Shown here in pieces: positions 60,190 to 60,707 of a DNA stretch of 64,000 nucleotides. Location of the stretch: positions 26,135-90,134 of the forward strand of contig HF994471.1 of NCBI GenBank assembly GCA_000434195.1. Reading direction: 5' to 3'. This DNA is from Clostridium sp. CAG:780 (GTDB lineage Bacteria > Bacillota > Clostridia > TANB77 > CAG-508). Numbering within the stretch: position 1 is the stretch's first letter; each line of letters starts with the position of its first letter. The position numbers were made by a program, and so were the translations under genes. The notes under the pieces are model-generated. The model was given only the letters and a program-made list of their open reading frames with translations, had not been told where the DNA came from and ran no database searches.

Positions 60190-60376
60190 TTGTAATACTT
60201 CCTTCCTATCTTTTGTCTTTTATTATTTACTGTTGATTATATCATTAATTATGTTTTTTTGTATAGTGTTTTTGAAAAATTTTGCACTTTGTAACACTTA
60301 TTTTTTATTTGAATAGTATATATCATAACGAATGAGTTATTAAGTAAATTAATCTTTTATAGGGGAGGTAATTAGT

Positions 60377-60475
60377 ATGGGAAATTGTTGTAATAGCGAA
60401 CTACTTTGGTTCATCATATTATTCCTATTGCTTTTCTGCTGTGGATGTGGAAACAGATGTTGCTGTAACAACTAA
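60377..60475 (+). CDS. Tiny Cys/Gly-rich transmembrane peptide 1 (32 aa)
   Basis: A GGGGAGG ribosome-binding site sits 8 nt upstream. The product MGNCCNSELLWFIILFLLLFCCGCGNRCCCNN fits the tiny-TM pattern: Cys/Gly ends around a hydrophobic core. Confidence 0.55.
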   Translation: MGNCCNSELLWFIILFLLLFCCGCGNRCCCNN

Positions 60476-60517
60476 TGATGCTAATAGATATGTACTTATT
60501 TAGGGAGGTGAATCATA

Positions 60518-60646
60518 ATGCCAGAGAATAATAGATGCTGTGGTGGAAACTGCGGATGTGGTTTCGGAGGAAATAGCTGTATTTGGATATTCATAATTCT
60601 TATAGTAATTTGCTGTTGCTGTGGAAATAATAATGGATGTTGCTAA
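60518..60646 (+). CDS. Tiny Cys/Gly-rich transmembrane peptide 2 (42 aa), a paralog of peptide 1
   Basis: A GGGAGGTG ribosome-binding site sits 7 nt upstream. The product is MPENNRCCGGNCGCGFGGNSCIWIFIILIVICCCCGNNNGCC. Confidence 0.55.
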   Translation: MPENNRCCGGNCGCGFGGNSCIWIFIILIVICCCCGNNNGCC

Positions 60647-60669
60647 TTTCTAATATGTTTTTTACGTAG

Positions 60670-60707
60670 AAAATTCACCTACCTTTTTGGTAAGTGAATT
60701 TTGTTTT
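60670..60707. terminator. Bidirectional terminator shared by the tiny-peptide genes (+) and spoIVB (-)
   Basis: AATTCACCTACC-ttttt-GGTAAGTGAATT-ttgtttt. Confidence 0.6.

Follow-up and report, generated by a model that had tools for sequence, protein, structure and literature searches.

We found that a 64,000-nucleotide (nt) stretch of Clostridium sp. CAG:780 (GTDB lineage Bacteria; Bacillota; Clostridia; TANB77; CAG-508; GenBank assembly GCA_000434195.1, contig HF994471.1, positions 26,135 to 90,134 of the forward strand), referred to as the window below, carries a tandem pair of very small genes, P1 and P2, whose predicted products are thiol-dense peptides with a single membrane helix. Judging from comparisons of the sequence with related loci, we slightly favour the reading that P1–P2 is a bicistronic operon for such peptides, expressed late in the mother cell under sigma-K.

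The pair lies on the + strand inside the 516-nt gap separating mutL from a SpoIVB-type gene, and the open reading frames (ORFs) had exactly the positions and translations given in the initial annotation. P1 (60377..60475; MGNCCNSELLWFIILFLLLFCCGCGNRCCCNN) and P2 (60518..60646; MPENNRCCGGNCGCGFGGNSCIWIFIILIVICCCCGNNNGCC) encode 32 and 42 amino acids (aa), with 8 and 11 cysteines, respectively; the range of 7–10 cysteines each that had been reported was thus inaccurate. The near-perfect GGAGG ribosome-binding sites proposed for both genes were read from the sequence as GGGGAGG (60362-60368), 8 nt 5′ of the P1 start codon ATG, and GGGAGG (60503-60508), 9 nt 5′ of that of P2, and the GGAGG of P1 was retained in every related locus. 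Strong expression of the two genes, which had also been claimed, is a prediction from these ribosome-binding sites only. An intrinsic terminator hairpin with a 14-bp stem followed by GTTTT was located at 60670-60702 on the + strand (−15.9 kcal/mol, z = −3.4), immediately beside the stop codon of spoIVB, which is convergent. Because no hairpin separates P1 from P2, the two genes form a single transcription unit with a common terminator, as had been suggested. The hairpin and T-run 3′ of P2 differed from locus to locus among the relatives. A generic terminator scan missed this hairpin and instead called one inside the P2 coding sequence, which was discarded.

P1 and P2 are almost certainly real translated genes. 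Cysteine-rich ORFs were frequent by chance in non-coding frames of the window (29% GC); composition alone is therefore no evidence, and the case for genes rests on conservation across species. Between the window and the related locus L009, 11 synonymous and 1 non-synonymous codon changes were counted in P1, and 16 and 5, respectively, in P2. Third codon positions accounted for 29 of the 38 nucleotide differences in the two genes together (binomial p = 7e-8), and all indels in the comparison were whole codons, in frame. The composition and pattern of the peptides also persisted across genomes of 29-52% GC. The codon comparison shows that P1 and P2 are under purifying selection. In existing annotations, exact P2 was found in three NCBI ‘Clostridium sp.’ assemblies that are metagenome-assembled genomes (MAGs), annotated as hypothetical protein only. 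No gene was called at the P1 position in the assemblies holding the locus, and the exact P1 sequence had no match among ~15 billion predicted proteins.

Upstream of P1, motif conservation and a position weight matrix (PWM) revealed a sigma-K-type promoter at 60291..60320 (+ strand), with a −35 element GTAACAC (60291-60297), a −10 element AATAGTATA (60312-60320) and a 16-nt spacer. In the upstream alignment this block was more conserved than the coding sequence and was present in every clade amid unalignable DNA. Of the 22 loci scored, 21 had the motif GTAAC-N16-[C/A]ATAnTAT at the homologous position, and the other ends 56 nt upstream of the start codon; the motif was also present in L037, a locus with a fused double gene. 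The window and the other Clostridium-type loci read TGTAAC, 16 nt, AATA(A/G)TATA, and the Oscillospiraceae-type loci and L030 read GTAAC(A/C), 16 nt, CATA(A/T)TAT(G/A). The PWM was trained on 25 C. difficile SigK promoters with mapped transcription start sites (PMC7438776 Table S6) and was run over the window on both strands. With this matrix, the P1–P2 site (60291-60320) scored 17.7 bits, compared with a training median of 16.6, and ranked second among about 128,000 window positions. The homologous site was the best upstream match in 21 of 22 distinct loci (spacer of 16 nt in 20 and 17 nt in one) and topped the whole locus in 15, as it did again in L037, where the promoter of the fused gene scored 18.0 bits.

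The mapped SigK promoters of C. difficile follow (G/T)TAACA, N16-17, [C/A]ATA(G/T)..TA (Soutourina et al., PMC7438776), and include those of cotE (AGTAACAC-N-AATAGAATA), cotA (TGTAACAT-N-AATATAATA), CD1067 (AGTAACAA-N-CATAGTATT) and CD3569 (GAAACAA-N-CATAGTATA); −10 variants with AATA are found in front of cotE, cotA, CD1891 and CD3613 (PMC7438776). The GTAACAC-N16-AATAGTATA of the window has the features of this class (−35 GTAACA, −10 CATAnnnTA, 16-17 nt), with A in place of C. The first base of the −10 element was A in the Clostridium-type loci, as in C. difficile cotE and cotA, and C in the Oscillospiraceae-type loci and L030. In C. difficile, promoters for sigma-E and for sigma-K have the −10 box in common, e.g., CATATTAT and CATATAAT (Saujet et al.), and differ in the −35 element, which carries AC for sigma-K versus ATA for sigma-E (PMC3789822). 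The −35 element of the peptide family contained AC in all cases, and recognition by sigma-E is less likely. The promoter is thus probably of the mother-cell sporulation type, as judged from its sequence, and the search for sigma-E/K or sigma-F/G motifs suggested by the initial annotation yielded a conserved sigma-K-type motif that independently supports the link to sporulation.

Other promoter readings of the same region were discarded: those for sigma-E, sigma-F, sigma-G and sigma-H, which used a conserved CATA(C) lying 3′ of the true −10 element, had the wrong spacing, an extracytoplasmic function (ECF)-type reading with TGTAAC as the −35 element had no CGT −10 element, and a generic sigma-70 scan missed the P1–P2 promoter. 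The third- and fourth-ranked PWM sites of the window, at 26030-26060 (−; 16.1 bits; antisense within a 421-aa ORF) and 52907-52937 (+; 15.4 bits), had no plausible gene downstream and are probably chance matches, i.e., background of the matrix in AT-rich DNA. The predicted 5′ untranslated region (UTR) opened with a stable hairpin in the Oscillospiraceae-type loci and L016 (L022 103-179, L025 2932-3001 and L016 574-640; z = −2.0 to −2.8), where the sequence varied and the pairing was apparently kept; it reached significance in some of the Oscillospiraceae loci (z about −2 to −2.4) and may be a 5′ mRNA stabiliser. The 5′ UTR in the window showed no significant structure (z = −0.13).

To define the family, a profile hidden Markov model (HMM) built with HMMER from P1, P2 and two relatives, aligned with one another, was searched against 1.84 billion representative proteins, which retrieved 23 cluster representatives at E <= 1e-3; a word-based protein search retrieved two near-identical clusters only. 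The majority of the profile matches were P2-like, with the pattern MPENRGCGCGFGGDNC[IC]WIIIxLIxxFCCCGNNNGCC, two were P1-like (P0018 and P0015), and P0017 was a fused double unit. When a single genome from each GTDB species was scanned, at least 15 further loci were confirmed among the 600 pattern matches listed; all of them lie in MAGs that bear the label Clostridia, Ruminococcus sp. or Oscillospiraceae. The family consists of ~40-aa peptides with a G/C-rich N-terminal end and the core C[IC]WIIIxLIxxFCCCGNN, and Cys makes up 23% of its residues. Charged residues are almost absent from both P1 and P2, and Cys/Gly/Asn clusters flank the helix. The architecture described at the outset, Gly/Cys-rich ends around one hydrophobic helix in two tandem copies, was supported. 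The two peptides align via the core NS-x-x-(L/I)W-x-FIIL-x4-CC-x-CGN and, on this sequence evidence, P1 and P2 are paralogues; the Trp at the start of the helix was invariant over the aligned family.

Both genes were found in the same order adjoining mutL in L001-L011, loci that were reached via P2 relatives. With a local HMM search of the loci, P1 orthologues and the tandem arrangement were recovered in L001-L011 and in the more distant Clostridium-type loci L013-15, L017 and L018, while L030 carried two P2-like copies and the Oscillospiraceae-type loci a single copy. The P1 core NSE[IL]LWFIILFLLLFC was almost invariant between species. Its helix, LWFIILFLLLFC, was identical in all recovered P1-type orthologues although the P2 helices of those loci differ, which suggests a specific helix–helix contact rather than a mere anchor. 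In L016 (473-750), an intact sigma-K-type promoter (18.9 bits) lay 179 nt from the P2 start and no P1-type ORF was detected between the two; by eye, this stretch may be a decayed P1, which would suggest that P1 is dispensable in some lineages. In L037 (3483-3935 and 4001-4219), two units are naturally fused into the 72-aa P0017, whose gene has a sigma-K-type promoter of its own. It adjoins a gene for an uncharacterised 132-aa Asn-rich protein, which has the site with the second-highest sigma-K PWM score in L037 and is itself adjoined by a GerM-like (PF10646) gene. In L012 (1-813), the P2-like peptide P0022 is in frame with a CsoR-family repressor (PF02583), followed by a CopA-like HMA-domain gene, which is either a chimera or a hint of a link to copper. 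The copper link was not used, as it comes from one 813-bp metagenome contig that shifts in GC content from 0.35 to about 0.5 and is a possible assembly chimera.

The peptide motifs were not found in print in any paper of the searchable library, and a recent review of small proteins in Gram-positive bacteria (PMC10730256) does not mention such peptides. The family, its extreme Cys content, the P1/P2 pairing and the spread into Oscillospiraceae appear undescribed, while a tiny sigma-K-controlled sporulation membrane peptide is a known kind of gene product, cf. YjcZ.

Regarding genomic context, the neighbours of the peptide unit varied by clade and included mutL, spoIVB, tRNA-Gln/His, sortase, HIT, acetyltransferases, a GerM-like gene and others; their synteny was seen within clades only, and the unit usually lay on the strand opposite to its neighbours. 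No conserved partner enzyme gene adjoined it in any clade. In the window, the placement of the pair between mutL and spoIVB was confirmed: mutL (58081..60189, −) is divergent from P1–P2, and spoIVB (60706..62007, −), encoding an S55/PDZ SpoIVB peptidase, is convergent with it. The divergent intergenic region contains a second conserved block, a sigma-A-type promoter directed at mutL (60236-60265, −; TATACA-18-TATAAT, with an extended −10 element, i.e., a preceding TG). Synteny was lost right after P1–P2 (window 60703-60710 versus L001 4140-4500 and L009 4140-4620), and at the position that spoIVB occupies in the window, related species carry tRNA-Gln, tRNA-His and a sortase gene. An extra 71-aa gene was inserted downstream of the peptide unit in L002 and L006.

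Several observations weigh against a sigma-K-controlled operon for membrane peptides. The −10 element of the window and its close relatives starts with A, not the usual C. PWM scores of 15-16 bits occurred elsewhere in the window without a gene behind them, so that the score of a single site is only moderately significant and it is cross-species conservation that carries the promoter argument. At about 14-15 residues, the hydrophobic stretch is short, and AlphaFold2 (AF2), run on P2 with a shallow alignment, gave a low-confidence model (predicted local distance difference test, pLDDT, of 49.6) in which only residues 21-34 are helical. The carriers were uncultured MAGs throughout, with no cultured carrier among the matches listed. 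Finally, the promoter of the window can also be read as TTGTAA-17-AATAGT, a weak sigma-A match (4/6 + 4/6), which in L001 is TTGTAA-17-AATAAT, and the CATAAT of the Oscillospiraceae loci matches TATAAT at 5/6 positions. These readings would favour real small membrane proteins made in growing cells from a housekeeping sigma-A promoter without a role in sporulation, such as micro-proteins for membrane stress, redox buffering or metal handling. We consider this unlikely, since the bases conserved clade-wide are GTAAC, not the TTG required by sigma-A, and the bases preceding GTAAC vary (TT, CT, CG, GC). Moreover, the spacer is fixed at 16 nt from AC, as in mapped SigK promoters, and the generic sigma-70 scan found no + strand site there.

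The remaining alternatives accept other functions or no peptide at all. Like type I toxins of Clostridia, P1 and P2 are small hydrophobic single-helix peptides encoded by isolated genes that run opposite to the adjacent ones, and a late sigma-K promoter would fit a role in mother-cell lysis, so that they could be membrane permeabilisers, acting as a holin-like pair or as a type I toxin countered by an antisense RNA. P1 contains one weak antisense promoter-like site (60445..60418, 9/12); however, it falls in coding sequence, and its −35 element is altered synonymously in L001 (TGTGGA to TGTGGT) and is not conserved. The peptides also have no charged (Lys-rich) tail, a feature that characterises type I toxins and holins, their promoter belongs to the sporulation rather than the vegetative type, PADLOC and Rfam gave no match, and nothing meaningful was found with PHROGs. 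To our knowledge, a Cys content of one-quarter has no precedent in type I toxin or holin families, and permeabilisers seem quite improbable. Very high Cys content in 30-45-aa peptides could equally point to precursors of ribosomally synthesized and post-translationally modified peptides (RiPPs), i.e., a lanthipeptide, sactipeptide, ranthipeptide or SCIFF-like bacteriocin, and tandem paralogues are common among RiPP precursors. Nevertheless, no maturase, protease or exporter gene adjoined the pair in any clade, no NCBIfam model matched, though the library includes models of RiPP precursors, and the conserved core is a hydrophobic helix with no leader or cleavage motif. The changing neighbours and the lack of a conserved enzyme argue against a RiPP precursor as well as against a leader or regulatory ORF, and we regard RiPP precursors as very improbable. 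An untranslated small RNA or leader with accidental ORFs would draw on the chance Cys-rich ORFs of this AT-rich window and on the failure of gene finders to call P1. We give it virtually no credence, because the third-position bias, indels in multiples of three and a peptide pattern kept over 29-52% GC exclude a non-coding RNA or accidental ORF, and the ribosome-binding site is conserved. The Rfam matches to this region at E <= 10 were all noise, far under the gathering scores. That the region might be the leader of another gene had been named as grounds for abandoning the initial annotation; nothing co-oriented follows the terminator, which excludes it.

If P1–P2 is indeed a late mother-cell operon, sigma-K polymerase would transcribe it in the mother cell at a late stage of sporulation, and the peptides would insert via their short hydrophobic helices (P1 residues 10-22, P2 residues 21-35) into a mother-cell-derived membrane, for which the outer forespore membrane is the obvious candidate. 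Free-Cys clusters would then be exposed at both membrane faces, and the near-invariant P1 helix would pair with a specific helix partner, most simply P2. The cysteines could form disulfide cross-links on release of the spore from the reducing, anaerobic cell; alternatively, they could coordinate metal ions. Disulfide-linked or metal-binding structures, for example in the spore coat, had been proposed initially. Time and compartment of expression, membrane insertion, P1–P2 pairing and thiol chemistry are steps that we infer, the thiol role from analogy with Cys-rich outer-layer proteins that depend on sigma-K and with the YjcZ peptides, which sigma-K likewise controls; by this analogy, a specific role in a thiol layer is possible but doubtful. 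Still more speculatively, and with little weight attached, the family might comprise widespread, hitherto unrecognised thiol-dense membrane anchors, from Clostridium to Ruminococcus/Oscillospiraceae, made late in the mother cell and forming a sheet, cross-linked by disulfides or metal, over the outer forespore membrane. Such a sheet would tether or nucleate the outer spore layers of strict anaerobes, or would be a switch triggered by oxygen or metal upon release of the spore.

In gut Clostridia, spore formation underlies transmission from host to host, and the outer spore layers are poorly understood compared with those of Bacillus and C. difficile. The conserved gene pair described here has largely been missed by annotation and is in no curated family, yet it bears a late mother-cell promoter signature. 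If the peptides are spore components, they would represent a new building block or a redox or metal element of anaerobe spores and an easy marker of sporulation-stage expression in metatranscriptomes. The C. difficile sigma-K matrix transfers to distant Clostridia and can reveal unannotated sporulation micro-genes.

A second Cys/Gly tail had been pointed out in the membrane protein encoded at 42842-43297, correctly, as this 151-aa DUF2651 (PF10852) protein with an Asn/Asp-rich linker ends in SSGCGCGNRNRNCMCNSNN..., resembling the Cys/Gly/Asn ends of P1 and P2. At least 3 Cys were present within the last 45 residues in 100 of 120 DUF2651 homologues, often as GCGCN(R). The top sigma-K PWM site of the window, GTAACA-N17-CATATTATA (19.5 bits; 43326-43356, −), directly follows the stop codon of truA and precedes the DUF2651 gene by about 30 nt.

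Among known systems, the peptides had been likened to YjcZ, and this holds for layout and analogy and not for family membership. Like YjcZ proteins (PF09680; TIGR01732, ‘tiny_TM_bacill’, a tiny transmembrane type), they are within 30-70 aa, with a Gly-rich N-terminal end and one hydrophobic helix, often occur in tandem copies and come from presumed endospore formers. B. subtilis yjcZ has been assigned to the sigma-K regulon (PMC517825), which makes ‘YjcZ-like’ a fair analogy. However, the proposed check with the TIGR01732/YjcZ HMM gave no match at E <= 10 for P1, P2 or 22 family members, for all of which Pfam-A and NCBIfam likewise returned nothing meaningful at this threshold. To exclude a filter artefact, a local YjcZ HMM was built from 44 PF09680-annotated proteins and run with filters off; the best score was 9.7 bits, with 3.3 bits for P1 and < 5 bits for P2 of the window. 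The reverse search, from the peptide family to YjcZ proteins, reached 17 bits on some of these, as much as composition and hydrophobicity could give. Profile–profile comparison with hhalign gave a probability of 34% over 9 columns for A3 versus A5; for A4 versus A5 it was 15% over 25 columns, and the register was as expected, with the Gly-rich stretch preceding the helix. The consensus of the 44 YjcZ proteins was ...GYGGGFALIVVLFILLIIVGASY..., and the YjcZ core FALIVVLFILLIIVGA contrasts with C[IC]WIIIxLIxxFCCCGNN in the peptide family. Cys is occasional in YjcZ versus 23% in the peptides, and YjcZ matches were mainly from Bacillaceae among those listed, whereas the peptide family was found in Clostridia MAGs only. 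Without an HMM match or the defining core in common, the P1/P2 family is, by sequence, separate from YjcZ, with the same layout and not a member of it.

The FeoB-associated Cys-rich membrane protein of Firmicutes (PF12669) is about 50 aa long and carries its Cys/Gly-rich tail after a single transmembrane helix, while the Cys residues of P1 and P2 stand on both sides of the helix; the peptides had no Pfam match to this family, and feoB was not among the called neighbours in any locus. The Cys-rich proteins of outer spore layers (C. difficile CdeC, i.e., CD1067, and Bacillus CotY/ExsY) likewise have a sigma-K-type mother-cell promoter, and that of CD1067, AAGTAACAA-N-GCATAGTATT, closely resembles the P1–P2 promoter. 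Their high Cys content may permit disulfide cross-linking. No sequence similarity of P1 or P2 to CdeC, CotY or ExsY was found, and those proteins are soluble, self-assembling and 150-400 aa long, whereas P1 and P2 are built of 32-42 aa around a membrane helix. In B. subtilis, SpoVM and CmpA are tiny mother-cell proteins that act at the outer forespore membrane (PMC10730256). SpoVM is a Cys-free, sigma-E-dependent amphipathic surface helix of 26 aa; unlike it, P1 and P2 combine a uniformly hydrophobic core with dense cysteines and a sigma-K-type promoter.

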